A stretch of 64,000 nt of DNA from an uncultured Alphaproteobacteria bacterium (GCA_963778925.1 CAVZWE010000020.1:137087-201086), one strand, 5' to 3'. Shown: positions 15,592 to 51,150, numbered from the stretch's first letter. The notes: generated by a model from the letters alone, not told the origin. Program-made: numbers and translations.

Positions 15592-15746
15592 AGTCATTTG
15601 TTTCTCGGGTCATTTTTAGCTTCGACCCCGGCTCTTGTCTCCGGCCGCCGCCCAAATGGCGTGACACGCTGCCTGCCGCCGTCTGCCGCCCGGTGTCTGC
15701 CGCCTGTCCCATCGAGGTGATGATGGCGCGGTCGCGGTCGCCGACC

Positions 15747-16016
15747 TTATTTCGGAAGGCATTCCACATTAAAGGCAATGATGATCTGTGCTGGGTCAGC
15801 TTTACCTAGGCTCTTCAAGTCTTCTAAACCACTTTTCAGCTTGGCTCCCGCCTCCTTTAAGCTGCCCTCAAGTGTCGACTTGGCCGCCCTGCATCGCTTT
15901 TCATTCGAGAACTCCTGAAACACCACGGTTGGGAGGAGCCTCCATTCCGCCCTGTCGTTTGTAGCGGCCGGACTGACTGAGTAGGAGAAGACGTACATCA
16001 GGATCCACATCGGCAT
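15747..16016 (-). CDS. Small hypothetical, possibly exported protein
   Basis: MWILMYVF...QEFSNEKRCRAA...VECLPK; hydrophobic start and two Cys. Confidence 0.4.
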   Translation of the reverse strand: MPMWILMYVFSYSVSPAATNDRAEWRLLPTVVFQEFSNEKRCRAAKSTLEGSLKEAGAKLKSGLEDLKSLGKADPAQIIIAFNVECLPK

Positions 16017-16406
16017 GCTCCACTTGTGATGCGACGGCAGTGACCGCCTGCGCCCCCAACGCCATCGTCGATAAGATGGTCGCGCCTCGCTTGCTTCGGT
16101 GCTTTCGGTGTCGTCGCAATGATGGTGTCCACGCCTCATCAGCATGCCATGATCTAGATCAAAGCGATCGCGGCGCGTGCGGAGTGCCGAGATCGCGATG
16201 GGTTGACGCCGGTCGATAAGATCAGCACCGGGACGGTGTCGGGTCTTGCTTACCCGCCTGCTGTTTGCGCGCCCACAACCGATAGGCTTCCTCGATAAAC
16301 GGATCGTCGGCTGTCAGCTCCGGTATCAACCGCGCACCTTCCTAGCGGAAGTGTTCTGGACCACGCCCCAGTTTGCGACGGTGGCGGCTCGCTAAGAGCA
16401 GATGTT

Positions 16407-16478
16407 TTCCGCTCTTCCCCCGAAACCGGACGTCGCTCAATACGGTCGGCATGTCCGTTCGGTGCCAATTTCGGAAGT
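16407..16478 (+). repeat. Tripartite GTCCG repeat, units B and C
   Basis: TTCCGCTCTTCCCCCGAAACCGGACGT and ATGTCCGTTCGGTGCCAATTTCGGAAGT. Confidence 0.6.
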
Positions 16479-16564
16479 CCGCCAAATGTCATTTCTTGAT
16501 CCTCGTAGAGCACCAAAGAGAGACCGCCTCGCGGCGGTCTCTCCGAGTCCAACCAGTACTTTGA

Positions 16565-17164
16565 TCAAGCAGCTCGCTTGAACGCTTCCCATGCCGCCTC
16601 ATTGGCGCGATCGAAGGCAGCGCGCGTTTCCGTCAAAGCTGCCATAAGTGCGGACCATGACTGGGTCCCCGCCTGGTTCAACTTCTCGAGTTTCTTCTCC
16701 GCGTCGACTGCATCGGCGTTCATACGCTTCACGGCGGCGTCGATATCGCCCCGACGCTCAGAAGCGAATTTTTTGGCATCGCTGCCAAGCTTGTCGGCCG
16801 CTTCGCGCCACGCTTTCAATTGGGCATCGGCTTGAAGCTTGAACGTCGCCTGCTGGTGCTCGATTTGCTTGCCGAAGCTCTCGACATATTTCTTGACCTC
16901 GGCCTCGAACGAGCGCCAGTCATCCTCTAGTTTTGCCTTTGCCTGGATCCAGGCGGCCTCGTTAGCTTCCGACTGCTTCTTCATGGTGTCCCGGAAGTCA
17001 TCACGCTGCTTGCGCAGTTCAGCCAGAGTCTTCTCAGCCTTGTCGCGGACATCGGCCTGCACCTCGGCTACCTTGCCTTCAAGCGATGTCACTGCGGCGT
17101 CCATTTCATCAAGACGCTCCTTGGCCCAATTTGTAAAGAAGTGGGGATTGCTTTGCGTAACCAT
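16565..17164 (-). CDS. All-helical coiled-coil hypothetical protein (apolipoprotein/phasin-like)
   Basis: Ala/Glu/Lys/Gln-rich amphipathic sequence; RBS GAGGAG. Confidence 0.7.
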   Translation of the reverse strand: MVTQSNPHFFTNWAKERLDEMDAAVTSLEGKVAEVQADVRDKAEKTLAELRKQRDDFRDTMKKQSEANEAAWIQAKAKLEDDWRSFEAEVKKYVESFGKQIEHQQATFKLQADAQLKAWREAADKLGSDAKKFASERRGDIDAAVKRMNADAVDAEKKLEKLNQAGTQSWSALMAALTETRAAFDRANEAAWEAFKRAA

Positions 17165-17221
17165 TTGCTTATCTCCTCGCATGCCCCATTTTTCTGATTA
17201 ATATGCCGCGCCAAGCTATCT

Positions 17222-17235
17222 TTGATGTAAGTCAA
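17222..17235. promoter_or_regulatory. FixK/FNR box TTGATGTAAGTCAA
   Basis: TTGA-N6-TCAA, 58 nt upstream of the 17164 start. Confidence 0.6.
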
Positions 17236-17290
17236 CATCAAACCCAAGAGTAATCCTCGGTCTGACCGGACTTCACCTAAGAAGTTACGG

Positions 17291-17409
17291 AGGTCCGAAA
17301 TGGGTCAAACTCAGACCTCGGGGCGTATCTGAGGTAGGTCCGTTCGTCCCCCAACAACAGACATGAGGCGACTGCGGCAGCATGTCCGAAAGGTGCCAAA
17401 CGCAGACAT
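17291..17409 (+). repeat. Tripartite GTCCG repeat, complete A-B-C copy
   Basis: AGGTCCGAAATGGGTCAAACTCAGACCT (17291), AGGTCCGTTCGTCCCCCAACAACAGACAT (17336), ATGTCCGAAAGGTGCCAAACGCAGACAT (17382); spacing 45/46 nt. Confidence 0.7.
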
Positions 17410-17517
17410 CCCAACTCGCGGAACAATGATCGCCCTTCATGCACGGCTTTATCAGAAATCCCGGAGCGACCTCATTCCGTTGCTCGTGATTTGCTTACCA
17501 AACCTGGTCAGCGCCGA

Positions 17518-18369
17518 TCATGGCTTGGCAGGTGGGACAGCGCTTTCGGGCATCGGCATCTGCATATCCGAGGGCATAACCATGCTGCTGCCCCTCGGGA
17601 ATGTGGGAAGGAATCGGGGTGCCGCGATCACCACCACACCATAAACGACGAGAGCGGCCGCCGTCGCGCGAGCCGCCACGCGACCCCAAGGCAATGTTTT
17701 CTCCGCGAATATGACGAGCGTGATAACCGCCATGGCAGCGATATTCATGATGCCGAGTGGGAACAGGATGACGAACAGGAGCCAGCAACAGCCAAGGCAA
17801 TAGCCCCCGTGGAGCAATCCCATGCGCAACGCGCCCGCAGCACCGTCGCGCCACGATGTCATGATGAAGGTGATGGGCGTGCGGCACTTCGAAAGGCACA
17901 AGTCCTTCAAGGGTGTAAGCTGGTAGAGGCCCGCCGCGACGAGCACTATTCCGCCGACGCGGGCCGCGGTGGTCGGCGATAGCGCGGCACGCGCAGCAAC
18001 CGCCTCGGCGGCGAGCGCGCCGGCATAGGCTGCAACTCCCGACAGCCCCCACACCAAAAGGTATGTCACCGCGAATATCCAGGTTGAGACGAACGCTTCG
18101 CCGCGCTGTCGCTTGCCCGCCTGCACTTTATGGAAGGTGAGGATCATGGGCGCGGCAGTCGGAAACATCATGGCCACCATCATGATGACCCAGACCGCCA
18201 GGAACAGCGGCGCGCGCAGGCCCATGGTCGGCGAGTCCATCGCCATATCCATATCGGTGCCTGCGGCTTGCCAGACGAGCACCGCCCAAGCCGCTGCTGC
18301 GAGCGCCAGCAGCAAGCCCAAGATGACGTTACGTTGAAACGCGATCGGGCCCGTCTGGGTGCCGTCCAT
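17518..18369 (-). CDS. DUF2182 family metal-binding integral membrane protein
   Basis: WVIMMVAMMFP, YQLTPLKDLCLSKCR, GGYCLGCCWLL. Confidence 0.85.
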   Translation of the reverse strand: MDGTQTGPIAFQRNVILGLLLALAAAAWAVLVWQAAGTDMDMAMDSPTMGLRAPLFLAVWVIMMVAMMFPTAAPMILTFHKVQAGKRQRGEAFVSTWIFAVTYLLVWGLSGVAAYAGALAAEAVAARAALSPTTAARVGGIVLVAAGLYQLTPLKDLCLSKCRTPITFIMTSWRDGAAGALRMGLLHGGYCLGCCWLLFVILFPLGIMNIAAMAVITLVIFAEKTLPWGRVAARATAAALVVYGVVVIAAPRFLPTFPRGSSMVMPSDMQMPMPESAVPPAKP

Positions 18370-18438
18370 TTGAGCCTCCCTCGCGGCACCAGACCGCCGA
18401 TCTGGAAAATGGTCAACTTAGCGACGCGCGCAGCGCTG

Positions 18439-19059
18439 TTAGTTCGACCAGCTGATCGGCGCGTAATGGCCGTTCTTGCCGGAATTGTCCCAACGCATGC
18501 CGTGATCGGCGAAGGTGCTGCCCTTTGAGCCGACTGCCAGCGCGAGCTTGTCGGGCGCGGCCGGATGGCCAATCGTCGTCCAAATCTCACCGCTGCTATG
18601 CATGGTGGGCAGAGGCTCCACTGCCATATGCATGATGCCTGGGATTTCCGCCGAGCGGCTTTTGCCCGTGATGGCATATTTGATCGCCACTTTCTTCGCG
18701 CCGAGATGATTGCCAACCAAAGGCGCGAATGCCGCCATGGGGCCACCCTCCGCGCCGCTGAAGATGGCACCGAGCGCCGCGGTCTGTTGTTCATCAGCGC
18801 GCTCATCGATATAGGCCGCTAGCGTCCAGTTGCCTTCTCCCATGGCGCCCGGTGTATGGCCAACGACGGCAACGTTGAGCCCGTCCAGCGATATTTTGCC
18901 GTAACTGCCCTTGTCGATATGGAAGACGAGCGCAACGTCGCATACCCCCTGACTCGGCCGCGCCGTCAAAGGGGCGCTAGTCGAGACAAGGCATGGGCAC
19001 ACCACGTTGCAGTTGCAATTCTCGAAATAATCGCCAGACAGGTTCCATTTCGTTGCCAT
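18439..19059 (-). CDS. DUF1326 family protein
   Basis: W.LSGDYFENCNCNVVCPC; the usual partner of DUF2182. Confidence 0.85.
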   Translation of the reverse strand: MATKWNLSGDYFENCNCNVVCPCLVSTSAPLTARPSQGVCDVALVFHIDKGSYGKISLDGLNVAVVGHTPGAMGEGNWTLAAYIDERADEQQTAALGAIFSGAEGGPMAAFAPLVGNHLGAKKVAIKYAITGKSRSAEIPGIMHMAVEPLPTMHSSGEIWTTIGHPAAPDKLALAVGSKGSTFADHGMRWDNSGKNGHYAPISWSN

Positions 19060-19289
19060 CTGCTCCTCCTCCTATAACGGAAAACACGAATGATTTTAAA
19101 GACGCGCCGCAAATGCTCCCTCACTTGAATTCAATTTCCGGCTGGTCATCGCCAAGCGAGCCGTCTCTTGTCTACGCCCTAGGCGAGAATTTAGCATAAA
19201 TTCTTGAATGCCGAACAGCCGAATTGAGGCCAGTGTCACGCATCTTATCAAGTGGGTCTCCCCGCACTCATTCAATGTCTGAGATGGGT

Positions 19290-20008
19290 GTGCGCCGTGC
19301 AAAGGCGGCGCTTTCCAGTGGGTGCAAGCCCCACCCGGCAACCGCTCCAGCCGGAAGCAATCGGAGCAGTCATGGAGGTAACGAAGTGGCTGAAGCCTTC
19401 GATTAGCGTGTCACAAATTGGTGACAGCGCGAGTGTGCAGGCCGCAACGCGAGTGAACGCCGAGCAATCCTCGAAAAGGACAATGCGCAGGTCGACCCGA
19501 CAACCCTATCGGGGAAGACTGATACGTCTGGATGAAATGAGCGAAGCGATACGTTCAGACGCTGCGCCGGGGTAGTGGCGGCGGCATGTACACAAGGAAA
19601 GCGCACGAAACACGGGAAGCCCCAAGGCGTGGTCAGCGATGACCAACCGGAAGCCCGTGAGGGACAGGCTGGGCGCCCTGGGGTGGCGGAGAGGTTCGTA
19701 GTACCGCGGAAGCCGGGTAACTCCGGTGGAGGGAAGGGACCTCAGTTCAAGACCGACGCAATACGTGGTGAAGGACCTGGAGATTGGGCAACCTATCAAC
19801 TCCAATAAATGTTCAGAAGCCGCAGATGGCGTTGCACGCGAAAGCGTGAAGTCTTGTCCGAGAGCCGGATGCGGGAAATCTGCCTGTCCGGTTCGATGAG
19901 CGGGATGTGGAAACGGAGCCATGGCCGAACCAGTAAGGCACCGCCAGACGAAAGAGGCGGCAACAGATATGTTCTACCTAAAGCCACCGCGCCACATCTC
20001 AACTCTAC
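19290..20008 (+). mobile_element. ORF-less group II intron (719 nt; RT/maturase ORF deleted)
   Basis: 5' GTGCG; domain V GAGCCGGATGCGGGAAATCTGCCTGTCCGGTTC (19862-19894); long domain VI ending CTCAACTCTAC; only a 21-codon ORF stub [21 protein letters not shown] (19784-19849). Confidence 0.85.
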
Positions 20009-20074
20009 CAATTCGCGCCGATTTGACCGTAGGGCGATCACGTCCGGCGCGCGACACGATATGGGCGAGACGCA

Positions 20075-21340
20075 CTAGGACGATAGCGCGCGACAAATCC
20101 CGCGCTCGAATTGCCGATAGGCCTTGAGAGCTTGTCGGTCGGCGAAGGGGAGGATCTGCATCATGATCACGCCGGCGATCCGCGTCGTCGGGTCGATCCA
20201 GTAATATGTATTGAACAGACCGGCCCATGTGAGGCTGCCTGCCTTGCGCCCGTCGGGGACGGGATCGATATTGATCATGTGTCCAAGCCCCCATCGCAGC
20301 TGAACGCCCGGAAAAAAATCCACGTCGTTCGATAGCGCCGGGTTTGTCGTCTTGAGGATCCCCGCTTCGAGGTTACCGATCTGGTTTTCGGACATCAAGG
20401 CAACGGTCTCCGGCCGAAGGATACTTGTCTTGCGGAGGCTTCCGCCATTCAACAGCGCCTGCAGCAGGGTCAGATAATCCGGCGCCGTGGAATAGATGCC
20501 GCCTCCTCCGGAAAACACTTGCCGAACATTTGGCTTTTCCGGGGGCTGCGGAAGAAGTTTTCCATTCGGGTCCCTCACATGCAGACGGGCCTGACGCGCG
20601 CGCTGTTTCCCCGTGAGCGAGAAGCTGGTGTCGTTCATTCCGAGCGGTCCCGTGATGTGATCGCCGAAATAGCGATCGAGACTCTGCCCGCCGGCGATTT
20701 CCACCATCCGGCCGACCCGGTCCAGACTGCCGCCATAGGCCCACCTGGAACCAGGCTCGAACATCAGCGGCACGCGCGGCAAGGCGGGGTTATGGTGAGC
20801 AACCTTGAGATAGCGAACGACATTCGGATCCCAAAGCGGATAGCTGAACCCGGACGTGTGCGTCAGCAGGTTGCGCAGCGTTATGGGTTTTTGCGCCGGG
20901 TGCAGTTGCGGAACCCCTTTCGCATCGAAACCGGCGAGAACCTGGGCCGACCCGAGGGTCGGATCGATATTGCCGGCCGGCTCGTCCAGATTCAGCTTGC
21001 CGCGCTCCACCAGTTGCAGCGCGGCGACCGACGTCAGCAGTTTGACCATCGAGGCGATTCGGAAGATCGTGTCGAACGACATGCGTGACGCCGCGGTCAT
21101 GTCGCGGAAGCCGAACGCGCCTTCATAGACCACCGACTGTTCGTTTGCGGCCATCGCTATAACGCCGGGTATTTCCCTGGCGCTGACCCTTGCCTGCAAT
21201 GCTCTGTCGATCTCCTCCCTATGGGCCGGCTTGTTGAGAGGCGCGGCGATGCCAGTCGAAGGTGCGGCCGGAATCACGCTTGCGGATGCAAGAGCCGCTG
21301 TCCGCAATAGCGCGTCGCGTCGGGTGATCGGTCTTGTCAT
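20075..21340 (-). CDS. Serine hydrolase (beta-lactamase class C/esterase family), Tat-exported
   Basis: TRRDALL twin-arginine signal, SMVK (SxxK), [14 protein letters not shown]. Confidence 0.85.
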
Positions 21341-21626
21341 TTGCGCCTTGAAGGTGAGACTGCTGGCACTCCCGAGAGATACGGCAAGCGTCTCAAGAAA
21401 CACCGATAAACGGGCGCAAATCGCCTTGCTTGCTGTGCAATGCTACGACCGCTAGCTACCACCGATCAACCGCGTTTCTTTGGTTCATCGGCACAAAGTT
21501 GGCAGTATTGCGTGAGCAGCGGCAGGTGGATCTGGTTTGCTGCGAATAATTGGCCGCTCGGTCCATCCAAATCGTACCCGCTAATTTGTATACCAGGGCC
21601 TGAACTCAAGAATTCGCAGTGGTCGG

Positions 21627-21651
21627 ACGTCCGCTTTGCCCACTCTCCGAC
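21627..21651 (+). repeat. Tripartite GTCCG repeat, isolated degenerate unit
   Basis: ACGTCCGCTTTGCCCACTCTCCGAC upstream of sulP. Confidence 0.4.
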
Positions 21652-21740
21652 GAATTGATCAGACTGGTCTCGGTGCGGCAATGGTGACAGAACGAGCGCC
21701 GACGAGCAACTAAAGGCAAGACCTGCGGGAGGATTTCCAA

Positions 21741-23363
21741 ATGTCACAGTTCGCGATCACCCGCGGCGATATTTTCGGTGGCTTGACCGCCGGCGTTGTG
21801 GCCTTGCCTCTTTGTCTTGCGTTCGGTGTCGCCTCCGGATTGGGCGCTGCCTCCGGCCTGTATGGCGGCATCATATTGGGCATTGTGGCCTCGCTTCTGG
21901 GCGGCACTGCGGTTCAGGTGTCCGGTCCGACGGCGCCGATGACGTTGATCCTGGCGGGCGTCGTCGCAGTGAACACGCTTCCGACAGGGAAGGTGAATCT
22001 CTCCAATGTCTTCGGCGTCTTCGTTCTTGCTGGCGCGTTGCAGGCCTTGTTCGGGATCGCAAGGCTCGGGCGATATGTTCGCTTCCTGCCCTATCCGGTG
22101 ATCTCCGGCCTGATGACGGGGATCGGCATCATCATCATTATTCAGCAAATCTTCCCAGTAGCGGGTTTGGACTCGCCGTCCTCGAATCCTGTCGCGATTC
22201 TGCAGTCCCTTGGAGCCCTGCAGCACGGTGTCCGTCCGGGCGCGGTATTGCTCGCGGCGACCACGGTCGCGCTTGCTTTCCTGCTGCCCCGTATCGTTTC
22301 TTTCGTTCCGCCGTCTCTCGTCGCTCTCGTCGTGCTCACGATTATCGCCGCTGTCTTTGGGATTTCGGCTCCGACCATTGGCGATATAGCCGGCGGCCTG
22401 CCGCACTTCATCATCCCCAGTTTGGATTTTGCCGATCCCAAACTCATCATCACCGCTGCGTTTCAACTTGCCTTTCTTGGGTCGATAGACACCCTCACGA
22501 CATCGCTGGTCGCAGACAGCATCACCAGAACGCATCACGACAGCAATCGGGAACTTGTCGGGCAAGGTGTGGGCAACGTGGCTGCTGCCCTTTTCGGTGG
22601 AATTCCTGGCGCCGGTGCGTTCATGCGGACGGCCGTCAATATCAGGGCGGGCGGACGGCATCGTTCTTCCGGTATCATTCATGGTCTATTCCTGCTCGCC
22701 GTTTTGCTCGGCCTATCCGGCGTGGTGCGGTACATCCCCCATGCCGTCCTGGCAGGAATTCTGATCAGCGCGGGGTTGAGCATCATCGATTATCGCAGTC
22801 TCTCCCATCTCTCGAGCGCCCCACGCGCCGACATCATCCTCATGCTGCTCGTGGTCGTGTTGACGATTTTCACCGATCTGATCACAGCCGTCGGCATTGG
22901 CATGGTCGTCGCCTCCTTGATCTTCATGGCGTCCATTGCCGGGATCATGGAACAGAGGACGAAGCTCACGCTGATGGAAGACGAGCCATGGGCGGATGAA
23001 ATCGAAATTCCCGAAGAATTGAGGAATCGTTTGCTAATCAAGCACGTGGATGGCCCGCTATTCTTTGGCTTCGCCCAAGCCCTTCGCAAGGTTTCGGCCC
23101 AAGTGGCGGATGGAAGGATGCTCGTGCTGAGGATGGAACGGGTCTCCTATATGGACCAGTCGGGAATTTATGCCCTGCAGGACGTCCTGGTCGACCTCGA
23201 GGCCGCGAACCTGTGCGTCCTTCTGGTTGGCCTTCCCCAAAACCAAATCGACCGCCTTGAAGCGATGCAGGTGGTGCCGAATCTCATGCCGAGAGAGAAC
23301 GTCTTCGGCAAATTCGAGGCATTCAGGCGTGAGTTGCCTAGGATCGTCGAAAAACTCGGATGA
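21741..23363 (+). CDS. SulP/SLC26 family anion (bicarbonate/sulfate) transporter with STAS domain
   Basis: GLTAGVVALPLCLAFG, SGPTAPM, NRELVGQG, GPLFFG, MDQSG. Confidence 0.9.
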   Translation: MSQFAITRGDIFGGLTAGVVALPLCLAFGVASGLGAASGLYGGIILGIVASLLGGTAVQVSGPTAPMTLILAGVVAVNTLPTGKVNLSNVFGVFVLAGALQALFGIARLGRYVRFLPYPVISGLMTGIGIIIIIQQIFPVAGLDSPSSNPVAILQSLGALQHGVRPGAVLLAATTVALAFLLPRIVSFVPPSLVALVVLTIIAAVFGISAPTIGDIAGGLPHFIIPSLDFADPKLIITAAFQLAFLGSIDTLTTSLVADSITRTHHDSNRELVGQGVGNVAAALFGGIPGAGAFMRTAVNIRAGGRHRSSGIIHGLFLLAVLLGLSGVVRYIPHAVLAGILISAGLSIIDYRSLSHLSSAPRADIILMLLVVVLTIFTDLITAVGIGMVVASLIFMASIAGIMEQRTKLTLMEDEPWADEIEIPEELRNRLLIKHVDGPLFFGFAQALRKVSAQVADGRMLVLRMERVSYMDQSGIYALQDVLVDLEAANLCVLLVGLPQNQIDRLEAMQVVPNLMPRENVFGKFEAFRRELPRIVEKLG

Positions 23364-23429
23364 CCGGTTATTATCCACTTCGGCTCCTGAATCATCGATC
23401 AGAAGATCAATTGAGCGGCGCAGCGCGGA

Positions 23430-24161
23430 CTAGTCGCTCGGCTGCTCGATCCTTCCGGTGCGCTGAAAATGCGACATAAGCATCTGGCAAATCAGCGCCC
23501 ACGAAATGCCGAAGCACCAGCCCGCCAGCACATCGCTCGGATAATGAACTCCAAGATATATCCGGCTGACTCCGACCAACAGGGCCAGGATCGCGGCGGT
23601 CATTATAAGATGGATGCGAACTGAGCGGGAAGCTTGCGTCTGAGCCAGCATCAAGCCGAGCGTCAGATAGCAGACAGACGAAATCGCTGCGTGCCCGCTC
23701 GGAAAGCTCGGCGTAGAGACCTGAGTGAGTGGAGTGACGAGATCGGGGCGCACTCGCGCAAAGGCAAGCTTGAGAAGGGTGTTGAGAAATGTGCCGCTCA
23801 GGACCGTCGTCAGGACGAACAAAGCGGCTCGACGTTTGCCTGCGGTAAAAAGGAACGTGGTTACGATTGTGACCAGCAGTGCAAGTACCGCGGTACTGCC
23901 CAGTGCGGTGATGTCTCGCACAACGTCGAGCAACCATGGCGGCCCGATTGGTCGCGACAAGTCGGACGCTTGGCGAAAGGCGACCATCAACCAGCGGTCG
24001 AACGCGATAGGCTCTCCTTCGGTCACCTCCTGTGCGATGAACGCAAAACCGAACAGGAGAACGGCGACGAATAAGGCCGGAGCCCAAGACCTCAGATGCC
24101 CGGCAGCATTCTGCGGTTCAGTCGTTCTCATCTTCGTCGCCTCCGGGAACTCAACTTCCAT
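23430..24161 (-). CDS. PAP2 family phosphatase
   Basis: KLAFARVRP, SFPSGH, SRIYLGVHYPSDV; start uncertain (24161 or 24131). Confidence 0.85.
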   Translation of the reverse strand: MEVEFPEATKMRTTEPQNAAGHLRSWAPALFVAVLLFGFAFIAQEVTEGEPIAFDRWLMVAFRQASDLSRPIGPPWLLDVVRDITALGSTAVLALLVTIVTTFLFTAGKRRAALFVLTTVLSGTFLNTLLKLAFARVRPDLVTPLTQVSTPSFPSGHAAISSVCYLTLGLMLAQTQASRSVRIHLIMTAAILALLVGVSRIYLGVHYPSDVLAGWCFGISWALICQMLMSHFQRTGRIEQPSD

Positions 24162-24275
24162 CAAGTACGAGAGGGTGTTCAGGTCGGCGTGCTGGAGGCC
24201 AGCCGGGATGAAGCTGCGGGTTTTCGAGTGGTCTACTCGCATACACGGTATTGGGAACTCGGCGTCGCGCCGGGT

Positions 24276-26165
24276 TCAAATCGCAAATTGTCGTCCAATC
24301 TCGACAACCTCGTCCCTCGGCAGCTTGAAGTAGTCGATCGCCTCGCTCGAATTGCGTAACATGAACGAAAACACGACCTCTACCAGCCACGGCAGTCCCT
24401 TGCCGTCCTTGCGCCTGACGACCGTCTCGCGCCCGATGTAATAGGTCACTGAGCCATCGACCGGGTAGCCCTCCGCGCGTGCACGTTCCAGCAAGGCCGG
24501 GAGGTCGGGCTGCTCCATGAAACCGTAATGAGCCTGGTTTCGCCACACTTGCGGGCCGATCTGGCGCACGTCCAGCCGGTCCTCCTCTGCGACGTAGGGG
24601 ATCATCTCGGTGACAACATTGAGGATCCCGACTGAATCGTGCAGCGCGTGAGTGTGCCGGAGGTGCCAGACCACGAGCGGCGGAATCTCGCGCGTGACGC
24701 GTGCCACGAACACAGCGGTGCCCGGCACGCGCCGAATCTCGCCGCTGTCGATCTGCGCCACGATATCGCCGATCGGAATCTGAGGTTCATCCGCCAATGC
24801 GTGCACCGCGGTGCGGCCCACTTGCCAGATCCGCATCAACGTGAAGACAGCGATGGCAAACAGCACGGGCACCCATCCGCCGTCGGCAAACTTCAACATG
24901 TTGGCGGACAGGAAGGCTCCCTCCACCGTGGCAAACCCGACGCCAATTGCGATCACCGCCGGCAGCGGCAAACCCCAGATCTCGCGTAGCGCGATCGAAA
25001 GAAGGAAGGTCGTCAGCACCATGTCCGCCGACACAGCTATTCCATAGGCGGCGGCCAGGTTCTCCGAGCTTCGAAAGCTGATGGCAAGCGCGAGCGTTGC
25101 AGTCATGAGCAGCCAGTTCACCGCGGGCACGTAGATCTGGCCAAATCCCTCGGCCGAGGTCTGGACGATTCGCATCCGCGGCAGGCAGCCGAGCTGGATC
25201 GCCTGGCGTGTCATCGAGAAGGCGCCCGTGATGACCGCCTGGCTGGCGACGGCGGTTGCAATCGTGGCGAGGATGACCAGCGGCAGCAGCAACACCGGCG
25301 CGGGGCAGAGACGAAAGAACAGACTTCCCTCGACCGCCCCACCGGCCAGCACGAGCGCCGCCTGCCCCGCATAATTCAGAACCAGCGCCGGGAAAACCAC
25401 GCACCAGCCCAACCGGATTGGCGCCCGGCCAAAATGGCCGAGGTCGGCATAGAGCGCCTCCGCCCCGGTGACACAAAGGAACACGCCGCCGAGCACCAGC
25501 ATGACGTTGCCACCACCGGAAAACAGGAAGTGCAGCCCCGGTGCCGGATTGATGGCCCATAACACGGCCGGATACTGTGCGATCCCCCACAGGCCGAGCA
25601 GGGCGAGCACCGCGAACCAGGCCGCCATGACCGGCCCCAGGAATCGACCGAGCACAGCCGTCCCACGTTGCTGCACGGCGAACAAAGCGGCGAGAATCGC
25701 CACGGTCCCCGGCAGTACGAAGCGGTCGAGCTCAGATGCTATGACGTCCAACCCCTCCAATGCCGACAGCACCGAGATCGCCGGCGTGAGGGCGCAGTCG
25801 CCGTACACCAGCGCCGCGCCGAACATGCCGATGAACAAGACGGGGCGCCGTCCCGGCTTCCGGCTCAGCAGCGCCATCAATGCGAGAACGCCACCTTCGC
25901 CTTCATTGTCCACCCGTAGCGCCAGGATGATGTACTTTACCGTCGTGATGATGATGAGCGTCCACACAATCAGCGACAGCGAGCCGAGGACGGCCTCCGG
26001 CGCGGGATGCTTGCCCGTGGCACCAAGCACGACCTTGAGCGTGTAGAGCGGGCTTGTGCCAATATCGCCATAAACTACGCCAAGGGCGGCCAAACTCAGC
26101 GCAGAGAGGCTGTGCCCTGAATGGTGCGGAGAGGCCTTGTTTGTTTCAACGGCCATTTGAACCAT
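24276..26165 (-). CDS. kup: KUP/HAK/KT potassium transporter
   Basis: GVVYGDIGTSPLY, GEGG, GAEALYADLGHF, GQIYVP, AAAYGIAV. Confidence 0.92.
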   Translation of the reverse strand: MVQMAVETNKASPHHSGHSLSALSLAALGVVYGDIGTSPLYTLKVVLGATGKHPAPEAVLGSLSLIVWTLIIITTVKYIILALRVDNEGEGGVLALMALLSRKPGRRPVLFIGMFGAALVYGDCALTPAISVLSALEGLDVIASELDRFVLPGTVAILAALFAVQQRGTAVLGRFLGPVMAAWFAVLALLGLWGIAQYPAVLWAINPAPGLHFLFSGGGNVMLVLGGVFLCVTGAEALYADLGHFGRAPIRLGWCVVFPALVLNYAGQAALVLAGGAVEGSLFFRLCPAPVLLLPLVILATIATAVASQAVITGAFSMTRQAIQLGCLPRMRIVQTSAEGFGQIYVPAVNWLLMTATLALAISFRSSENLAAAYGIAVSADMVLTTFLLSIALREIWGLPLPAVIAIGVGFATVEGAFLSANMLKFADGGWVPVLFAIAVFTLMRIWQVGRTAVHALADEPQIPIGDIVAQIDSGEIRRVPGTAVFVARVTREIPPLVVWHLRHTHALHDSVGILNVVTEMIPYVAEEDRLDVRQIGPQVWRNQAHYGFMEQPDLPALLERARAEGYPVDGSVTYYIGRETVVRRKDGKGLPWLVEVVFSFMLRNSSEAIDYFKLPRDEVVEIGRQFAI

Positions 26166-26483
26166 TGCAGCCCCAAACCGGGATGTCGGGTGCCGAGGGA
26201 TTGCCCCCGCCACCCTCTCTCGCAGTATCCGAATGGATTTCCGGACCGCCCGAGGCTTGGGCAACCATTGCCGGTCCAGATTGATCTGGATCAAAAGAAC
26301 ACAACGCCAGGCGCTTCCCGGCCCCGGCACCTTCGTGGAAAAGTCGTGGGAGATCCTGGAAATGAGCTGCGCATTTCGCCGCTGCACACGAGCATGCAGG
26401 GCAAGCCCAAGCGAGTTGGCCGTCGTTCAAATTGGAACAAGATCGGGAAACACGGGCACGCCTATGCGACGACGCCCGCGCCG

Positions 26484-26915
26484 TCAACGCGCGGCGTTGT
26501 AGACATCACGCAGGACGTTGGTCTCAAGCTCCAGATCCTTCAGTCGATGCTTGACTACATCGCCGATGCTGACGATACCGGCCAGCTTGCCGCCGCGCAG
26601 TACCGGCATGTGGCGCACGCGATGGTGCGTCATCAGGTTCATCACGCGATTGACACTCTCGTCCGGGGACACGGTGGTCACACCGTATTGCATGACCTCC
26701 TTCACAGTCATCGACCCGGCTGTCTCGCCATAGCGAGAAAATGCATGGACGATTTCACGTTCGGAAATGAGACCAAGAATTTCGTCCCCGCTCGTCACCA
26801 CGAGAGCGCCAATATTCTTTGCGCGGAGCCAGTCCGCCGCTCTCTTGATGCTGGCTTCCGGAGCTATTGTTGTGACGTCGGTGCCCTTCCGCCTCAGAAT
26901 GCTTTCGATGGACAT
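26484..26915 (-). CDS. CBS domain pair protein
   Basis: Two CBS repeats, RVRHMPV, GIVSIGDVVK. Confidence 0.9.
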   Translation of the reverse strand: MSIESILRRKGTDVTTIAPEASIKRAADWLRAKNIGALVVTSGDEILGLISEREIVHAFSRYGETAGSMTVKEVMQYGVTTVSPDESVNRVMNLMTHHRVRHMPVLRGGKLAGIVSIGDVVKHRLKDLELETNVLRDVYNAAR

Positions 26916-27094
26916 AGCCTCCTCCCATCGTTTGGCCTAGCCGCCTATCTCATTGATTTGCGGTCTCGCCCCCGCAATTGGGAAGCAATTGGGGGGCATG
27001 GAAGCCGTTCTCCACTTTAGCTTATCATATCGGCAGGAAGCAGTCAGCAAGCATCGGGGACCGCGCAACCGATCAGTCGTTGGCAAGCTTGTGC

Positions 27095-27204
27095 GTGACC
27101 GGTTCGGGTCATTCGTGCCGTGTTGGGGACCGGTTGAGCCGGCACCCGAAAAGCGGACATTCTCGGGTTTCTCCAACATGTTACAAACGTGCCAAAGCTG
27201 TGCC
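27095..27204 (+). repeat. Tripartite GTCCG repeat, A-B-C copy
   Basis: GACCGGTTCGGGTCATTCGTGCCG, CACCCGAAAAGCGGACAT, ATGTTACAAACGTGCCAAAG. Confidence 0.6.
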
Positions 27205-27399
27205 GATATATGGCTTCGGTCTGAACGGGAACCTGCCGCCTGCGAGCATGGCTCGCGCAGCCCGACCGCGTCGCGCTGCTTCGACAGCGTATTCCTAAAC
27301 TTCTTCCCGTCCTTCACAATGACGACTAAATTCTTCGCCGGATCCTCCGGCAATTGATATCTGCGATCGGATCGCCCCGCTCATTCGAAGGCGACGTAA

Positions 27400-28848
27400 A
27401 TGGCAATTCATGCTCGCTTGCGGACCCCTGTCCATTTCGCGGTTGCATTGCTTTCGTCGGCCTGTGCTTTTCATGCCGTCGTGCAGGCGGCGTCGCCGGT
27501 GCCCGACGGAGTGTCTCTCAGCGTGTCGGCGATTACGTGGAGCACCGTCAAATACGCGACCGATGCGGAGAACGGATTCGTCAGCGGGTCGCTCGACAAG
27601 AAGACCATCGTCGATCGCACATTCAGCACCCGCGTGCTCGAGAATCGTTATCTGAAGGTAACGCTCGTGCCCGAATTCGGCGGGCGAATTCTTTCCATCA
27701 TTTACAAGCCGACCGGCCACGAACAACTTTATCGCACGGAAGTAGGCGTGCCTTACGGGATCGAGGGCGGCAATTTCTATTACGACTGGCTGATGGTGTA
27801 TGGCGGCATCTTCCCGACATTCCCGGATGCCGAGCACGGCAAGACCTGGCTGAAGCCGTGGGATTTCAGGGTGGTGAAGGAGAGCGCCGGCGAAGTGACG
27901 GTGTCGATGTCGCTGAAAGACGATTTCGCATATGCGGGGGCGCCGAGGAAATTCAGGCCGGGCTCGACGGGCATCGAAGCGACGACCTACGTGACGCTGA
28001 AAGCCGATCGCGCCGCGCTCGATGTGCGCGTAGTGCTGAAAAATCCGCAAGACAAGACGATCGACTACGAGTACTGGACCTGCACGACGCTGGCTCCGGG
28101 ATCGGACCCGAAAAATCCCAAAACGACCGGCGGGGCCGAAATCATCGCGCCGATCCGGGCCTACCGAACGGCCGACTGGTCGGCCAATCTGTCCGACGGC
28201 GACAACAGTTTAGGCATGGGCACGAGCCGCTTCGAAAGACTGCGCTATTTCAAGAACTGGCCGACGATGGGCATCGCATATGCCGCGCCGGACATGCAGG
28301 GCGGGAATTTCTGGGGCGTAATCAACCATGACAACGAAGAGGGGATCATCCGCATCGCCGACAATACCGTCACGCCGGGCCTGAAAATGTGGACGTGGGG
28401 ATTTCCGTCGTTTACGAACGAAACCGACGCACGCAAAGACCCGAACGAACAACGACCTTACATCGAATTATGGGCAGGCGTGTCGGACCAGTTTTTCCAC
28501 AGCGCCAGGTTTTCCGCACTGGGCGAAGTGTCGATTCCGGAAACCTACAGCCCGACCGTCGGCATCAGCAACGTGACGCATGCGAACGAGAACATCCTGA
28601 TCAATCTCTCGGCCGATACGTCCGGCGTCAAACTTCAGTTCTTCAGTATCGAACCGGCCACGCCGTTGCGCGTAACGTTGAAACGCGGCGACGCGGTATT
28701 GTTCGACGACGCCGTGAAAGCCGACCCGAAAAACGGAAATGGTATTTCCGCGACGATTCCTGCCGGCGGCAGCGGCGAACAGGTACAGCTGACGATCAGG
28801 ACCGCAGAGGGTAAAGAGCTGATCGCGGCCGCGACAAAAATAAAATAA
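27400..28848 (+). CDS. Secreted DUF5107-like (aldose-epimerase/carbohydrate-binding fold) protein
   Basis: Signal peptide; VLENRYLKVTLVPEFGGRILSI, GGIFPTFP..EHG, ELWAG. Confidence 0.65.
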   Translation: MAIHARLRTPVHFAVALLSSACAFHAVVQAASPVPDGVSLSVSAITWSTVKYATDAENGFVSGSLDKKTIVDRTFSTRVLENRYLKVTLVPEFGGRILSIIYKPTGHEQLYRTEVGVPYGIEGGNFYYDWLMVYGGIFPTFPDAEHGKTWLKPWDFRVVKESAGEVTVSMSLKDDFAYAGAPRKFRPGSTGIEATTYVTLKADRAALDVRVVLKNPQDKTIDYEYWTCTTLAPGSDPKNPKTTGGAEIIAPIRAYRTADWSANLSDGDNSLGMGTSRFERLRYFKNWPTMGIAYAAPDMQGGNFWGVINHDNEEGIIRIADNTVTPGLKMWTWGFPSFTNETDARKDPNEQRPYIELWAGVSDQFFHSARFSALGEVSIPETYSPTVGISNVTHANENILINLSADTSGVKLQFFSIEPATPLRVTLKRGDAVLFDDAVKADPKNGNGISATIPAGGSGEQVQLTIRTAEGKELIAAATKIK

Positions 28849-28885
28849 ATTCTTGCCGATTGCCCTATTCAAACGCAGCGGGTTG

Positions 28886-29665
28886 TCATCGCAACGCCGC
28901 CCGCACCTTGCGCTTGAGGTCGAGGCTATTGCTATCGACGGCAACCACCCTTTCGTCATTCGCATCCTCGAAATTGGTCACGACCACCTTGAGTTCCGCG
29001 TTGGGCAGGTACTTCAGTTGCGGGTCGTTCCAGTCGCCATAACGTGGCTGAAGGGTCAGTTGCTGCTTCTCGCGCGGCTCCAGGCCGCCCTTGAAGGTCT
29101 GAACGAATTCCTGCTTGGCCCAGGGAATAGTCCGGTTCGGTGTCGTCAGAACGCTTGAGAAGTAAATGCGCGAGATAGGGAGCTTGCCGCTATTGCGAAC
29201 CTCAAACTCGATAACAGGTTGTTCGAGATAGCCGCTTCTCCGCCAGTAATATCTTGGAGAAGTAACTTCGACAGACCCCAATACGTTTCCGACATTCTGC
29301 AGCCTTGCCTCGGTCTCCGAAATTTCGGCGTCCAGTTTGATGGAGAGGTTCTGTATGATAGCGGAGGCGCTGCTGCCATTGATCCTTGGCCCAAGCCGGC
29401 TGAGGATTGTGTATGGATTTGCAAACCCCTTGGCGGTCATGTTGCCGAGCTGTTGTCCGTCGAGTTCAATTCTGGGCGTGCTTTCGATCAATAGATACCC
29501 CAGCGCAATCTGCAGACGGCGCAGGTCATCGTTGCTCAGCTTTGCTTTTATGGCAGCCAGGCTCCTTTGATAGGCATCCCAGCTCGATGTGTCGAAAACC
29601 GGATCGAAGATGCAACCTGAGAGCAAAAGGCAATACAGGATGGTCAGGCTCAACCGCTTCATCAT
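28886..29665 (-). CDS. Hypothetical lipoprotein
   Basis: Lipobox LLSGC after a short hydrophobic leader. Confidence 0.7.
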   Translation of the reverse strand: MMKRLSLTILYCLLLSGCIFDPVFDTSSWDAYQRSLAAIKAKLSNDDLRRLQIALGYLLIESTPRIELDGQQLGNMTAKGFANPYTILSRLGPRINGSSASAIIQNLSIKLDAEISETEARLQNVGNVLGSVEVTSPRYYWRRSGYLEQPVIEFEVRNSGKLPISRIYFSSVLTTPNRTIPWAKQEFVQTFKGGLEPREKQQLTLQPRYGDWNDPQLKYLPNAELKVVVTNFEDANDERVVAVDSNSLDLKRKVRAALR

Positions 29666-30044
29666 CTTGTCCGCTTGTGATCGTTGCAGGTACCGCCAGC
29701 ACGCCGGATTTCAGCAACGGTTCTTTAGGTGCAAGCCATCAACAAAAGATTGAGTGAATCGGTCCGCACCTGTCATTACTTAACAAATCGTGAATTTGTC
29801 CGGAGCCGGTGCTGCGCGGGTAGCGGTCACGACTACTGAGGGTCAATCGCCACAGAAACGCGACGTCCGCACCACGTCAGGTTTTCTCCAATGGCTACCG
29901 AAGAACGAACATCGCTGGAAGTTTAAAACGCGCGGTGTCGACGACTGTCCACTGGGGAAGGGCGGAGCCCTTCCTCTGAGAGCGACTTGGCTCAGATCCC
30001 GCAACAGCCCAGACATTGATCGTCGGCACCCTGTCGAAACATCG

Positions 30045-30194
30045 TCATCGGGACATATTTTCCGGCAAATTCCAGAATGCGTGGATGGCTTCGATCGAAG
30101 GAAACTCGAACGCCACCTTCGGCTGCTCACCGGGTTGGCGCTCCAGGACTTTAACCCTCCCGCCCCTGGTCGAAAACGTCCCAACGAATTTCAT
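30045..30194 (-). pseudogene. DUF1330 family fragment
   Basis: TRGGRVKVLE...FEFPSIEAIHAFWN; N-terminus and C-terminus missing. Confidence 0.5.
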
Positions 30195-30541
30195 GAAACT
30201 GACTTCCAGCGCTGTTTGTCTGAAGGCGGCTAACGTCCGCGATCGGATCAATCACGTCATCCCAAAGGTGCGAAGCTTACTTACGGTCTTCCCTCAACGG
30301 CGGACCAAGCGAAACTCGCGGGCAAGTGCGTTTCGTGCCGGAAGGGCGACATTTTGGTTATAAAACAAACAAATGCGAGTTATTTTGTGTTGCTGTTCCG
30401 GTCAGCGGGATCTCAAAACGTCATGGGGAAACATGAGCCGTTCGGGACGCTCGTTTCATCGGCACAGGACAATACTGTCGGTTATCAAATACAGCCGCTC
30501 ATCGCGCGCTATCAGGTGATCGGTGTTAGGAGCGTGAGCTC

Positions 30542-31903: not shown

Positions 31904-31905
31904 AG

Positions 31906-33060: not shown

Positions 33061-33107
33061 ATCCCTTGAGCAAAAAGATTCGCCGTGTCCAGTAGGGCCG
33101 AGGAGGG

Positions 33108-33176
33108 AAGTCCCCTCCGGGTCATTCGCGCCGATCGTGCGATGTCAATTCGGAGTCCGGTCTGTCCTCGATCACT
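33108..33176 (+). repeat. Tripartite GTCCG repeat, units A and B, at right edge of the 17.6 kb region
   Basis: AAGTCCCCTCCGGGTCATTCGCGCCGAT, then GAGTCCGGTCTGTCC 45 nt later. Confidence 0.55.
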
Positions 33177-33256
33177 TCGGCGAGATCCTGCAGCGCATCA
33201 TCAGCCTGCCGCCGACAAGGGTCTCGCCAGGTTCGGATCGGCAATCCGATCCAGGG
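33177..33256 (+). repeat. Direct repeat copy B: orphan 3' end of a cNMP-binding gene, overlapping the metallophosphoesterase tail
   Basis: Encodes GEILQRIISLPPTRVSPGSDRQSD versus GEILQSMINLPPIRVSPGSDRQSD at 15508. Confidence 0.8.
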
Positions 33257-47356: not shown

Positions 47357-47468
47357 GTGCGGCCGTTCCGTAACACATTACGGCCACTGGATTTTGTTCC
47401 GTCGCTCGCTGCTTGCCATTCCCCTGCCATTCACTCACTATCCGGAATCACACGCTTCGGGGGGATAA

Positions 47469-47807: not shown

Positions 47808-47919
47808 TCGCCGGCGCCCGGTTGCATTGCTGACCTGCCTGGTCGGCGAGCCGTGCATCCTTGCCAAGCCCATTCGCTTCACCGACACTTCCTCCATAAC
47901 AAAAAGATGGAGGAAACCG

Positions 47920-49469: not shown

Positions 49470-50150
49470 ATGAACGTCATTGTTTTCGCATCGCGTAAAG
49501 GCGGCTCGGGGAAGAGTACCCTGGCCGCCCATCTCGCTGCGCATGTGCATAAGGCTACGAAGCCGTGTCTGCTTATCGATGCCGACCCGCAGGGGTCGTT
49601 GACGCTTTGGCACAGGCTGCGCGGCACCAACGAGCCGCCGATCAAGACTGCCGTCAATTCCGTCAGCGCGATCGTCGCTGCCGCGAAGCGCGACGGCATG
49701 GAATGGGTATTCATCGATACGCCGCCGAATACGTCGGCAGTCGTGGAAGATGCCATCAGGAACGCCACGATGGTGATCATTCCGGCGCGGCCCGGGGTAT
49801 TCGACGTCAATGCCGTGCAGGATACGATTCAGTCCTGCCGCGCCGCGCGCAAGCCGTATGCGGTCGTGATCAACGGTGCGCCGGCCCGCAGGGACGACGC
49901 GGAAAGCCGCATCGTCAGTATCGCGCGCGAAGCGCTGGCCAAGTTCCGGGCGCCGGTCTGGGGCGGCCAGATCACCAACCGGGCCGATCTGTTGATGGCG
50001 CTCGGCAAGGGTGAGGGCGCGCGCGAATATTTCGCGGAAGGGCGCGCGGCGGCGGAAATCGGCCGGCTATGGGCTGCGATCGAGCGGTCGGTGAAGGCGA
50101 TCCGCGGTCAGGCGTCGGCGAGCGGCACCATGCATAAGCAAGCGGCCTAG
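49470..50150 (+). CDS. parA: ParA family ATPase (short, orphan)
   Basis: KGGSGKST, IDADPQGS, IDTPP; no parB adjacent. Confidence 0.88.
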   Translation: MNVIVFASRKGGSGKSTLAAHLAAHVHKATKPCLLIDADPQGSLTLWHRLRGTNEPPIKTAVNSVSAIVAAAKRDGMEWVFIDTPPNTSAVVEDAIRNATMVIIPARPGVFDVNAVQDTIQSCRAARKPYAVVINGAPARRDDAESRIVSIAREALAKFRAPVWGGQITNRADLLMALGKGEGAREYFAEGRAAAEIGRLWAAIERSVKAIRGQASASGTMHKQAA

Positions 50151-50276
50151 AGCCATTTCCGTTTCGATCGAATCGAAACGGGGCACTAGATTCCTGGTTT
50201 GGCGCGTTTTCCTGACGCGAGCCGGTCTCCACTCCGCTTGAAGACGCTCCGGGCGGCCGCGGCTTTCGCGGTCGAC

Positions 50277-50307
50277 AAAAAAACGCGCGGGGTGCCGCGC
50301 GTTTTTT
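50277..50307. terminator. Rho-independent terminator (bidirectional)
   Basis: AAAAAAACGCGCGG-GGTG-CCGCGCGTTTTTT. Confidence 0.8.
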
Positions 50308-50359
50308 CGTTGTGTGGGCAACCTTCCCCCTCATGGGCAAGGATAAACGGCCTTTCGGC

Positions 50360-50500
50360 TCACGCCACCATCAGCATGTAGAACACGATCACCGGCGACA
50401 GACACAGGATCACCGACCAGATGCCGAGCGCCCAAAGGATGTCTTCGGTCGTAAAACCCTGTTGCTCAGGGAACCGATGGTTCTGAGTATCCGTATTCAC
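50360..50500 (-). CDS. 46-aa single-TM small protein (below ORF-track cutoff)
   Basis: GTG start, MNTDTQNHRFPEQQGFTTEDILWALGIWSVILCLSPVIVFYMLMVA. Confidence 0.5.
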   Translation of the reverse strand: MNTDTQNHRFPEQQGFTTEDILWALGIWSVILCLSPVIVFYMLMVA

Positions 50501-50631
50501 GACGCCCCCGCGTTTTTGTTGTTGTGGGGACTTTGTTACGCGTTGAATTTTAAAAAAGCCGGTCGCGATTTCGCTCGTATTTGACCGCTGGTGCTACCGT
50601 CGATTAACCACGGCAACACCTCGTGATTTCC

Positions 50632-50781
50632 TCAGCTTCCCAGCAGGTGGAAGGCCAGAACCGGCGCCAGGCCGAGCAGCATCGCCCACAGGCCGAACGA
50701 CGACACCAGAAGAACATCCTGCATTCCCTGGGATCGTGCGGCGATCGAATAGGCGGCATTTTGTATGGTTGGAGTGGTCAC
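50632..50781 (-). CDS. 49-aa single-TM small protein
   Basis: GTG start after AGGG; DVLLVSSFGLWAMLLGLAPVLAFHLL. Confidence 0.55.
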   Translation of the reverse strand: MTTPTIQNAAYSIAARSQGMQDVLLVSSFGLWAMLLGLAPVLAFHLLGS

Positions 50782-50930
50782 TGTTTTCCCCTTGGGTTGT
50801 CGCTGGGGGAGTTGAATAAGCGGCAAATTCTAAAGATACGGTCGCCGCATCGTTCGGATTCGAACGGCGCCCGCTACGGCGCGTTAACCAGGGCAGTGGT
50901 CGGGGCGAATTATCGGTCGGCGCGCCCTAC

Positions 50931-51059
50931 GCCGCCGGCGTGCTCTATCCCGTGTTCGGTATCCTGCTGTCGCCGATGGTGGGCGCCGCCGCGATGGCGC
51001 TGTCATCGGTCAGCGTGATCGGCAATGCGCTGCGGCTGGCGCGCACGCGGCTGGATTAG
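50931..51059 (+). pseudogene. copA: C-terminal fragment of a Cu(I)-translocating P1B ATPase
   Basis: [36 protein letters not shown]. Confidence 0.75.
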
Positions 51060-51077
51060 GGCGTAGAGCCGCTGCGG

Positions 51078-51150
51078 ACGTCCGTTTCGGCGGGCATTCC
51101 GAACTCAAGCCGGACATCGCGCCATATCCGCTTGATGCCAAGAGCAGACT
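51078..51150 (+). repeat. Tripartite GTCCG repeat (includes unit C)
   Basis: ACGTCCGTTTCGG...CCGGACAT and ATATCCGCTTGATGCCAAGAGCAGACT. Confidence 0.55.

Follow-up and report, generated by a model that had tools for sequence, protein, structure and literature searches.

A dispersed repeat of three palindromes between small gene modules in an uncultured alphaproteobacterium and its relatives

Results

Element E is a mosaic of three imperfect palindromes

A 64,000-nucleotide (nt) stretch of DNA from an uncultured Alphaproteobacteria bacterium (GCA_963778925.1 CAVZWE010000020.1:137087-201086; the window hereafter denotes this whole stretch) carries, between unrelated small gene modules, copies of an apparently unnamed repeat family, which we label E. 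The element is approximately 117 nt long and is a mosaic of three imperfect palindromes of approximately 28 nt each, designated A, B, and C. On balance, we favor the reading that E is a dispersed repeat similar to repetitive extragenic palindromes (REPs) and bacterial interspersed mosaic elements (BIMEs) and that it acts, in addition, as a recombination substrate. The comparison loci fetched for this study carry L numbers (e.g., L053 and L202).

A consensus was derived from 98 copies, and 84 copies were aligned. The three units have the arms ATGTCCGCTTT/AAAGCGGACAT in common and are centered on GGGTCA (A), CCCCC (B), and GTGCCA (C); their consensus sequences are ATGTCCGCTTTGGGTCAaAAGCgGACAT for A, ATGTCCGCTTTACCCCCgAAAGCGGACAT for B, and ATGTCCGCTwwGTGCCAAAAGCGGACAT for C. 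The 84-copy alignment revealed that the center of each unit is conserved and specific to that unit. The units recur at a spacing of 45 nt, with 17-nt spacers between them, and 29 of 38 full copies measured 117 nt. The ends of the element are sharp, since similarity broke off abruptly on either side both among the 98 copies and in the alignment. The palindrome arms were 87% paired, as against 28-40% in shifted registers, and the same C.A mismatch occurred in approximately half of the unit A copies. RNAalifold did not predict a consensus structure from the 84-copy alignment, and the three hairpins were therefore entered by hand in a covariance model. The canonical copy in L053 folded better than shuffled sequences (z -3.9), and a nested form was also allowed.

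No target-site duplication was observed: the 38 full copies had no flanking duplications of 3-9 bp, and 2-bp matches were at the level of chance. A weak preference for CC-R was seen ahead of the first base of E. The element has inverted-repeat ends only because every unit is itself a palindrome.

Copies of E in the window

The covariance model of 84 copies, which include the one at 17286-17413, was run unfiltered over the whole window (Table 1). A preliminary description had reported three related palindromes approximately 45 nt apart, clearest at 17291-17409, and the model bore this out, identifying a complete A-B-C element at 17286-17413 (80 bits, E-value 2e-18). Its palindromes start at 17293, 17338, and 17384, that is, 45-46 nt apart, and its units read GTCCGAAATGGGTCAAACTCAGAC (A), GTCCGTTCGTCCCCCAACAACAGAC (B), and GTCCGAAAGGTGCCAAACGCAGAC (C). 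The variant GGGATGTCTGCGTTTGGCAC is common to this copy and to the orthologous element downstream of PpoB2 in L202. The second significant copy, noted earlier at 16407, consists of units B and C. The covariance model match spans 16358-16482, and in soil-metagenome contigs whose match begins at 16388, a proper unit A precedes the same point, so that unit A has been lost at 16396 relative to these contigs.

Four further copies, at 19275, 27090, 51073, and 52529, were backed as relics by orthology or by weak scores. The copy that the preliminary description had placed at 51078 held up as a B-C form, and the same gene is preceded by orthologues of this copy in L269, which has B-C, and in L263, which has unit C. 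The one placed at 27095 was recovered only as a weak relic, with an exact 11-mer arm AAAGCGGACAT at 27150-27160 and a GTGCCA center in register; homology between the window and L208 stops at 27084, beside it. The unit A relic at 52529-52556, absent from the preliminary description, lies as far from the stop codon of the preceding gene as do full elements in L266 and L269, and homology with relatives ends after it. All six supported copies are on the + strand.

Table 1. Features of the window that relate to E, to the 17.6-kb insertion, and to the flanked gene modules
Feature	Coordinates	Strand	Evidence and remarks
Complete element E	17286..17413	+	A 17293-17316, B 17338-17362, C 17384-17407; between coiled-coil gene and PpoB2 gene
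Element E, units B-C only	16396..16482	+	nhmmer E-value 5e-8 (model positions 39-118); covariance model E-value 3e-7
Element E, units B-C	51073..51155	+	Covariance model E-value 0.017; upstream of metallo-beta-lactamase-fold gene
Decayed A'-B-C relic of E, flanked by divergent genes	27090..27220	+	Covariance model E-value 0.5; nhmmer E-value 0.2
Unit A relic, downstream of metallo-beta-lactamase gene	52529..52556	+	Alignment with L266 and L269; no model score
5' half of unit A, cut after GGGT by group II intron	19275..19289	+	Alignment with full A-B-C element of L202
Group II intron in unit A, no open reading frame, 3' limit uncertain	19290..19937	+	Rfam matches
Probable remainder of split element: 3' half of A, spacer, and beginning of B	20009..20060	+	By-eye comparison with L202; no model score, weak
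17.6-kb insertion	15579..33176		Between two genes that abut or overlap in ~76/80 relatives
Left copy of 73-bp direct repeat	15506..15578		92% identity to right copy
Right copy of 73-bp direct repeat	33177..33249		3' end of metallophosphoesterase gene
PpoB2 (DUF2182) and DUF1326 gene pair	17518..19059	-	Pfam; synteny and element positions in L201-L262
Gene for coiled-coil protein, with an element on either side	16565..17182	-	Only weak coiled-coil Pfam matches
Metallo-beta-lactamase-fold gene, single-gene module flanked by E remnants	51458..52507	+	Pfam PF00753

The other places named in the preliminary description, 15596, 21627, 29860-30020, and 33108, did not hold up, scoring at most 1 bit with the model even in search spaces of 220-320 nt. 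By-eye matches of 33108 and 21627 to variants in L010, L266, and L143 were dropped, as the model gave no support for them. In the window as a whole, the shared arm with up to 2 mismatches was not enriched (23 occurrences versus 18 +/- 3.7 expected), and the strict pattern GTCYG-N8-24-CRGAC occurred at the level of chance (9 versus 5.9 +/- 2.5), finding among the E copies just the three units at 17293-17407. A generic repeat finder run on the window missed the family. The window copies folded no better than shuffled sequence (z -0.3 to -1.1). The E copies in the window are old, decayed relics, and because they are decayed and fold like shuffled sequence, it is unlikely that a system currently acts on them.

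A covariance model match at 8506-8595 was rejected as a copy of E. It is a dimer in which two CGTC-type REPs (CGTCATGGCCGGGCTCGTCCCGGCCATCCA and its mirror) stand head to head; it is situated between convergent genes and belongs to a separate family that has already been described.

E is widespread, intergenic, and mostly co-oriented

The window represents a piece of a Bradyrhizobium-like chromosome. The best protein matches to its core genes came from Bradyrhizobium and related uncultured genomes (83-95% identity), and E itself occurs in Bradyrhizobium, Pseudolabrys, and related Xanthobacteraceae. The A-B-C architecture was found independently at L053:1005-1123, in genomes fetched for another purpose. 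An exact A-to-B pattern was present in at least 120 stretches of public genomes, and assemblies of Pseudolabrys, Xanthobacteraceae, and other Hyphomicrobiales accounted for most of the matches listed. The A-B-C element is found in many Xanthobacteraceae genomes, and iterated nhmmer searches yielded 389 distinct copies in 262 loci. The forms observed were ABC (166), AB (106), BC (70), A (28), B (10), and C (9). A search of the plasmid database PLSDB returned no match to E.

The copies are intergenic, only 7 of 387 overlapping called genes, and their median distance to gene 3' ends was 45 nt, versus 107 nt to 5' ends. Adjacent copies were co-oriented in 233 of 253 pairs (92%). Their orientation was independent of the direction of the genes (153 opposite, 113 the same) and weakly correlated with GC skew (70 versus 42 loci, p 0.01). 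The density of E was one per 2.1 kb in the loci from the A-B pattern scan, which is an ascertained set, and loci retrieved by way of unrelated genes had one per 47-115 kb. In element-poor genomes (L038, L053, L010, and the window), the copies clustered in variable segments.

Elements flank gene modules that occur in different contexts

The results confirmed the earlier proposal that the repeat is situated between small, unrelated gene modules. The only segment common to the window and L202 is element-PpoB2-DUF1326-element, at 86% identity, and their neighbors beyond it differ. In L202, an unrelated open reading frame (ORF) for a small secreted protein occupies the E-to-E interval that holds the coiled-coil gene in the window; an exact-protein look-up of the coiled-coil product returned no match. 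The metallo-beta-lactamase gene provides a second example. It is 85-92% identical in many relatives and lies in a different context in most of them, and most relatives that carry it have no extended synteny among themselves. Homology between the window and its relatives around this gene is limited to 51136-52551; with L263, L266, and L269, the common part comprises only the gene and its element remnants. Remnants were present on both sides of the gene in several relatives.

Homology terminated at or within an element in five comparisons of related genomes. L038 and L042 match at 93% identity through the final base of a unit A and are unrelated past it, and the match of L046 to L044, at 92% identity, extends as far as a B-C element. 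In L176, co-oriented elements divide unrelated accessory modules of one to three genes and of lower G+C content, including two successive lipocalin-DUF1330 modules, which represent a duplication. Among ORFs between neighboring elements (L081-L200, n=150), 22 encode ABC_sub_bind (PF04392) orphan solute-binding proteins and 3 encode TctC; these counts suggest that gene-plus-element units have been duplicated. The soil-metagenome contigs, which by their nature cannot show absence, contained no joints pointing to circles or deletions.

The 17.6-kb insertion is bounded by a duplication of core sequence

Four of the six supported copies are situated inside a 17.6-kb segment. Among the 80 relatives fetched, approximately 76 have the gene at 15082-15597 immediately after, and overlapping, the metallophosphoesterase gene (33201-34175, minus strand). 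In the window, core homology stops at 15579-15583 and returns at 33177, and a 73-bp direct repeat (92% identity) spans the junction of the two core genes. Unrelated inserts of 1-3 kb with a similar duplication were found at the same junction in L020, L023, and L056, and their left junctions differ. The 17.6-kb insert contains no integrase gene. The region is a true insertion bounded by the 73-bp duplication and not by E, and the junction of the two core genes is a recurrent insertion hot spot at which the 17.6-kb cargo accumulated. Copies of the repeat had been described at both edges of the region. This was not confirmed, because 15596 and 33108 score as chance and the arm is not enriched; the edges consist of the direct repeat of the core-gene junction.

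A group II intron splits one element

The copy described earlier at 19275/20009 was substantiated in its first part. The alignment of the window with L202 runs to ATGTCYGAGAWGGG, after which L202 continues into a full A-B-C element and the window into GTGCG, with which a group II intron begins. The intron contains domains D1-D4 (Rfam D1-D4-4) at 19316-19452 and D5-D6 at 19860-19934, which scored 99.9 bits with RF02003 and, in a local search, 38.9 bits (E-value 6e-6) with RF00029. Approximately 70 nt separate the intron end from element-like sequence that resumes near 20009, and this second part is a weaker, by-eye assignment.

Bases 19286-19489 of the intron are 93-95% identical to two copies in L072 (L072:9216-9417 and 11498-11713), and in both full-length intron copies of L072 the 5' exon is unit-A-like and resembles the same half-unit. 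In four soil metagenomes, the depth over the intron 5' end was 500-1800, versus roughly 0-90 for the flanks. The metagenome contigs have a 15-nt 5' exon in common, and the sequence upstream of this exon differs among them. These findings suggest that the group II intron may home into E.

Searches for a partner enzyme

The window contains neither a tyrosine recombinase (phmmer with XerD; Pfam on 30 window proteins) nor a serine recombinase, and no Y1 (HUH, IS200/RAYT-type) transposase was found in it. Six-frame translations of approximately 2.2 Mb likewise yielded no Y1/RAYT protein, although such a gene, if present once, could easily fall outside this sample. In 4.2 Mb of loci, the serine recombinases were one large enzyme (L180) and one invertase in a locus without elements (L206), and 0.74 Mb of element arrays contained no small resolvase.

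A 206-aa FimB/FimE-like tyrosine recombinase, which has more than 7800 close homologues in metagenomes, was considered as a systematic partner and rejected. Its gene (8001-8624) adjoins an upstream element (7841-7965) in the element-poor loci L345-L349, and it also lies beside an element in L124 and L088; no element is adjacent in L343, L350, L351, L353-L356, and L359. The element is thus adjacent in three contexts and not in four others. The tyrosine recombinase or HUH transposase for which the preliminary description had suggested looking was not found in the window, and elsewhere no such gene was consistently beside the elements.

Other features of the window and its relatives

A 38-nt inverted repeat pair (TTTTCGAGCGAAAGACTGCGCCGGACTTGATCCGGGGT), 95% complementary and probably a further dispersed repeat, has one arm at 34181-34218, immediately upstream of the metallophosphoesterase gene, and the other at 52608-52645, immediately downstream of the metallo-beta-lactamase module. 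Compared with L268, to which it is 96-97% identical, L278 has a 155-nt insertion directly after the metallo-beta-lactamase gene (L278:11179-11335), and this insertion bears yet another palindromic repeat (CCTCGCCCCGCTTGCGGGGAGAGG...). A tRNA-His gene (39542-39618) is followed by a stretch of lower G+C content (40000-46000, 0.52-0.57) with many ORFs lacking a Pfam match. It was rejected as the attachment site of the 40-51 kb region, as no repeat of the tRNA 3' end was found. The adjacent ORFs 47593-48432 and 48452-49114 correspond to the N-terminal and C-terminal parts of one Peripla_BP_6 protein, and the gene is therefore probably split or frameshifted. Two internal repeats were also present, namely a 15-nt periodic repeat (41646-41903) within a pentapeptide-repeat protein gene (41547-42524, minus strand) and a 103-nt direct repeat (37056-37158 and 37200-37302, 79%) within a gene for a 1247-aa PAS histidine kinase.

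Discussion

Relation of E to known repeats

The preliminary description could not assign the repeat to a named family, and our searches led to the same conclusion. A search of Rfam gave no match at the gathering score, and the window copies and an element-rich locus had none at E-values up to 1; the unit sequences were not found printed in the searchable literature, which excludes figures and subscription papers. E is therefore apparently an unnamed repeat family, distinct from Br-REP1/2 (PMC5082802) and from the GTAG and CGTC REPs (PMC3733652), and it is closest in kind to REP/BIME or BOX-type interspersed palindromic repeats.

Similar to REPs and BIMEs, E consists of imperfect palindromes of approximately 28 nt, is intergenic and of high copy number, forms composite clusters with regular spacing, generates no target duplication, and varies in abundance among related strains. 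The GTAG and CGTC REP superfamilies are defined by a conserved head and stem (PMC3733652), whereas E has neither a GTAG nor a CGTC-AT head and its units begin with A-TGTCCGC. Moreover, the units of E stand in tandem in one orientation and do not alternate, each has a specific conserved center, and 92% of neighboring elements are co-oriented. BOX elements of Streptococcus pneumoniae (see PMC3049150) are likewise modular (A-B-C) and intergenic, with variable module content and no known transposase. They have no sequence relation to E, however, and come from another phylum, and their modules are mutually unlike, whereas the units of E share arms. Br-REP1 and Br-REP2 of Bradyrhizobium japonicum are also intergenic and come from the same bacterial group, and two further palindromes flank Br-REP1, giving three stem-loops (PMC5082802); in sequence, by contrast, they read CCGGAATCTCGAGATTCCGG, as compared with ATGTCCGCTTT...AAAGCGGACAT in E. 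In contrast to miniature inverted-repeat transposable elements, E has no target-site duplication, and its ends are inverted merely through the palindromic units.

The fixed spacing had been likened to that of attC or res subsites. The 45-nt spacing itself stood, but the elements fit the definition of neither site. E resembles attC sites (approximately 120-nt VCRs) in length, in being palindromic, in forming co-oriented arrays between small accessory modules, and in the similarity of its sequences within a lineage. It differs in that its consensus lacks the RYYYAAC/GTTRRRY core sites, the element ends being ATGTCCGC and GCGGACAT, and in that it forms three separate palindromes of 9-11 bp and not one long imperfect hairpin; the recurrent C.A mismatch in unit A is the sole attC-like trait of the hairpins. 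No intI or attI lies nearby, and the elements are scattered over many contigs. Set against arrays of mostly one-gene cassettes, neighboring E copies are co-oriented in 233/253 pairs, the modules hold one to three genes, and these genes face either way (153 opposite/113 same). The res sites of Tn3 and gamma-delta comprise three recombinase-dimer sites in 114 bp (PMC9943657), and E has three inverted-repeat units of dimer-bound size in approximately 115-117 bp. The subsites of res are unequal in length and spacing, however, whereas E units measure 26-27 bp (outer TGTC to GACA) with both spacings at 45 nt, and res occurs singly per transposon or plasmid beside a resolvase gene, whereas E has hundreds of copies with no resolvase nearby.

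Interpretation and alternatives

Under the favored interpretation, in which E is a REP/BIME-like repeat that doubles as a recombination substrate, an enzyme acting in trans would spread the elements, possibly on hairpins in single-stranded DNA. Their near-identical sequence would then turn the placed elements into recombination substrates, through which E-module-E segments could be gained, lost, duplicated, and exchanged. Such exchange would produce the cassette-like mosaic noted in the preliminary description.

Several points weigh against this interpretation. The association with breakpoints amounts to five cases without a genome-wide null model, and elements and breakpoints are alike expected in intergenic, accessory DNA. 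No pair of empty and filled sites (flank-E-flank versus flank-E-module-E-flank) was found, and searches of the window and the loci identified no mobilizing or recombining enzyme for E. The arms covary little. Together with the high arm pairing, this indicates that the palindromes are real but that the sequence, and not the structure alone, is conserved; given the little covariation, the units may form hairpins or may instead be bound by protein as double-stranded DNA. In addition, the density in the pattern-scan loci is overestimated because these loci were chosen for an exact A-B match, the orientation counts use loci selected likewise, and the gene calls in element-rich loci are crude.

Other points tell against exchange at the elements and at the same time agree with a repeat that is passive, whether selfish or regulatory (for instance, a REP-like terminator or a stabilizer of mRNA), and whose position at boundaries and breakpoints would be a by-product unrelated to gene movement. 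In element-rich genomes an element follows almost every gene, and any gene there has flanking elements; homology between the window and L201, which has no elements, stops at the same gene borders; and the left limit of the metallo-beta-lactamase module ranges from 51136 to 51446 among relatives. The proximity of the copies to gene 3' ends is also consistent with such a role. Nevertheless, two of the breaks between genomes of 92-93% identity lie within a few bases of an element end, the copies cluster in variable segments of element-poor genomes, and 92% co-orientation regardless of gene direction is unexpected for terminators. We therefore regard a purely passive repeat as rather unlikely.

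A dedicated site-specific system, of the attC or res type, would assign the crossover to unit A and accessory functions to B and C, with a recombinase acting in trans to move cassettes of the form B-C-gene-A. The order in the metallo-beta-lactamase module of the window is indeed B-C-gene-A, breaks are located at or in unit A, the unit-specific centers are conserved, and same-direction arrays separate modules of one to three genes. The outer TGTCCG with which the arms start is presumably close to resolvase half-sites. Three dimer-like inverted-repeat subsites in approximately 117 bp also recall the 114-bp res of Tn3 (PMC9943657), and the gene for the small tyrosine recombinase adjoins an element in L124, in L088, and in L345-L349, loci with few other elements. 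On the other hand, the same gene has no adjacent element in four other contexts, the window contains no recombinase, and the 0.74 Mb of arrays contains no small resolvase. The genes are oriented either way relative to the elements, the attC core sites are absent, and the subsites are equal in size and spacing, unlike those of res. Furthermore, A-B and A-only forms are as common as B-C forms. A dedicated system of this type is thus improbable. We consider it similarly doubtful that E represents the recombination sites of an undescribed gene-cassette system of Alphaproteobacteria with its recombinase encoded elsewhere in the genome, and the corollary that co-oriented E arrays are cassette arrays with crossover at or next to unit A is also an improbable one. 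To our knowledge, classical integrons have not been found in Alphaproteobacteria. The idea of cassette shuffling put forward earlier therefore survives in part: homology ends at E and E-flanked modules occur in different contexts, but no recombinase co-occurs with them.

That E is mainly a target of other mobile DNA, whose insertions leave half-elements at segment edges, appears highly improbable, since the intron inserted in unit A after GGGT is the sole documented case and the larger breakpoints have no recognizable mobile element beside the split unit, even though two intron copies in L072 have unit-A-like 5' exons, metagenome contigs carry the same 15-nt 5' exon with different upstream sequence, and insertion sequences are known to target REPs (Tobes and Pareja 2006, as cited in PMC5082802).

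Implications

Even on a modest reading, E is an abundant and apparently unnamed repeat that is a source of spurious small ORFs in annotation and that may be the homing target of a highly abundant group II intron; with the covariance model of E now available, the association with breakpoints can be examined across whole genomes. If the elements are sites of exchange, as the favored reading of a REP/BIME-like recombination substrate holds, they would help explain how the mosaic, very large genomes of Bradyrhizobium-like soil bacteria gain and shuffle small sets of genes. Modules would then be shuffled without recognizable mobile-element genes, and the elements would provide a ready marker for finding accessory modules.

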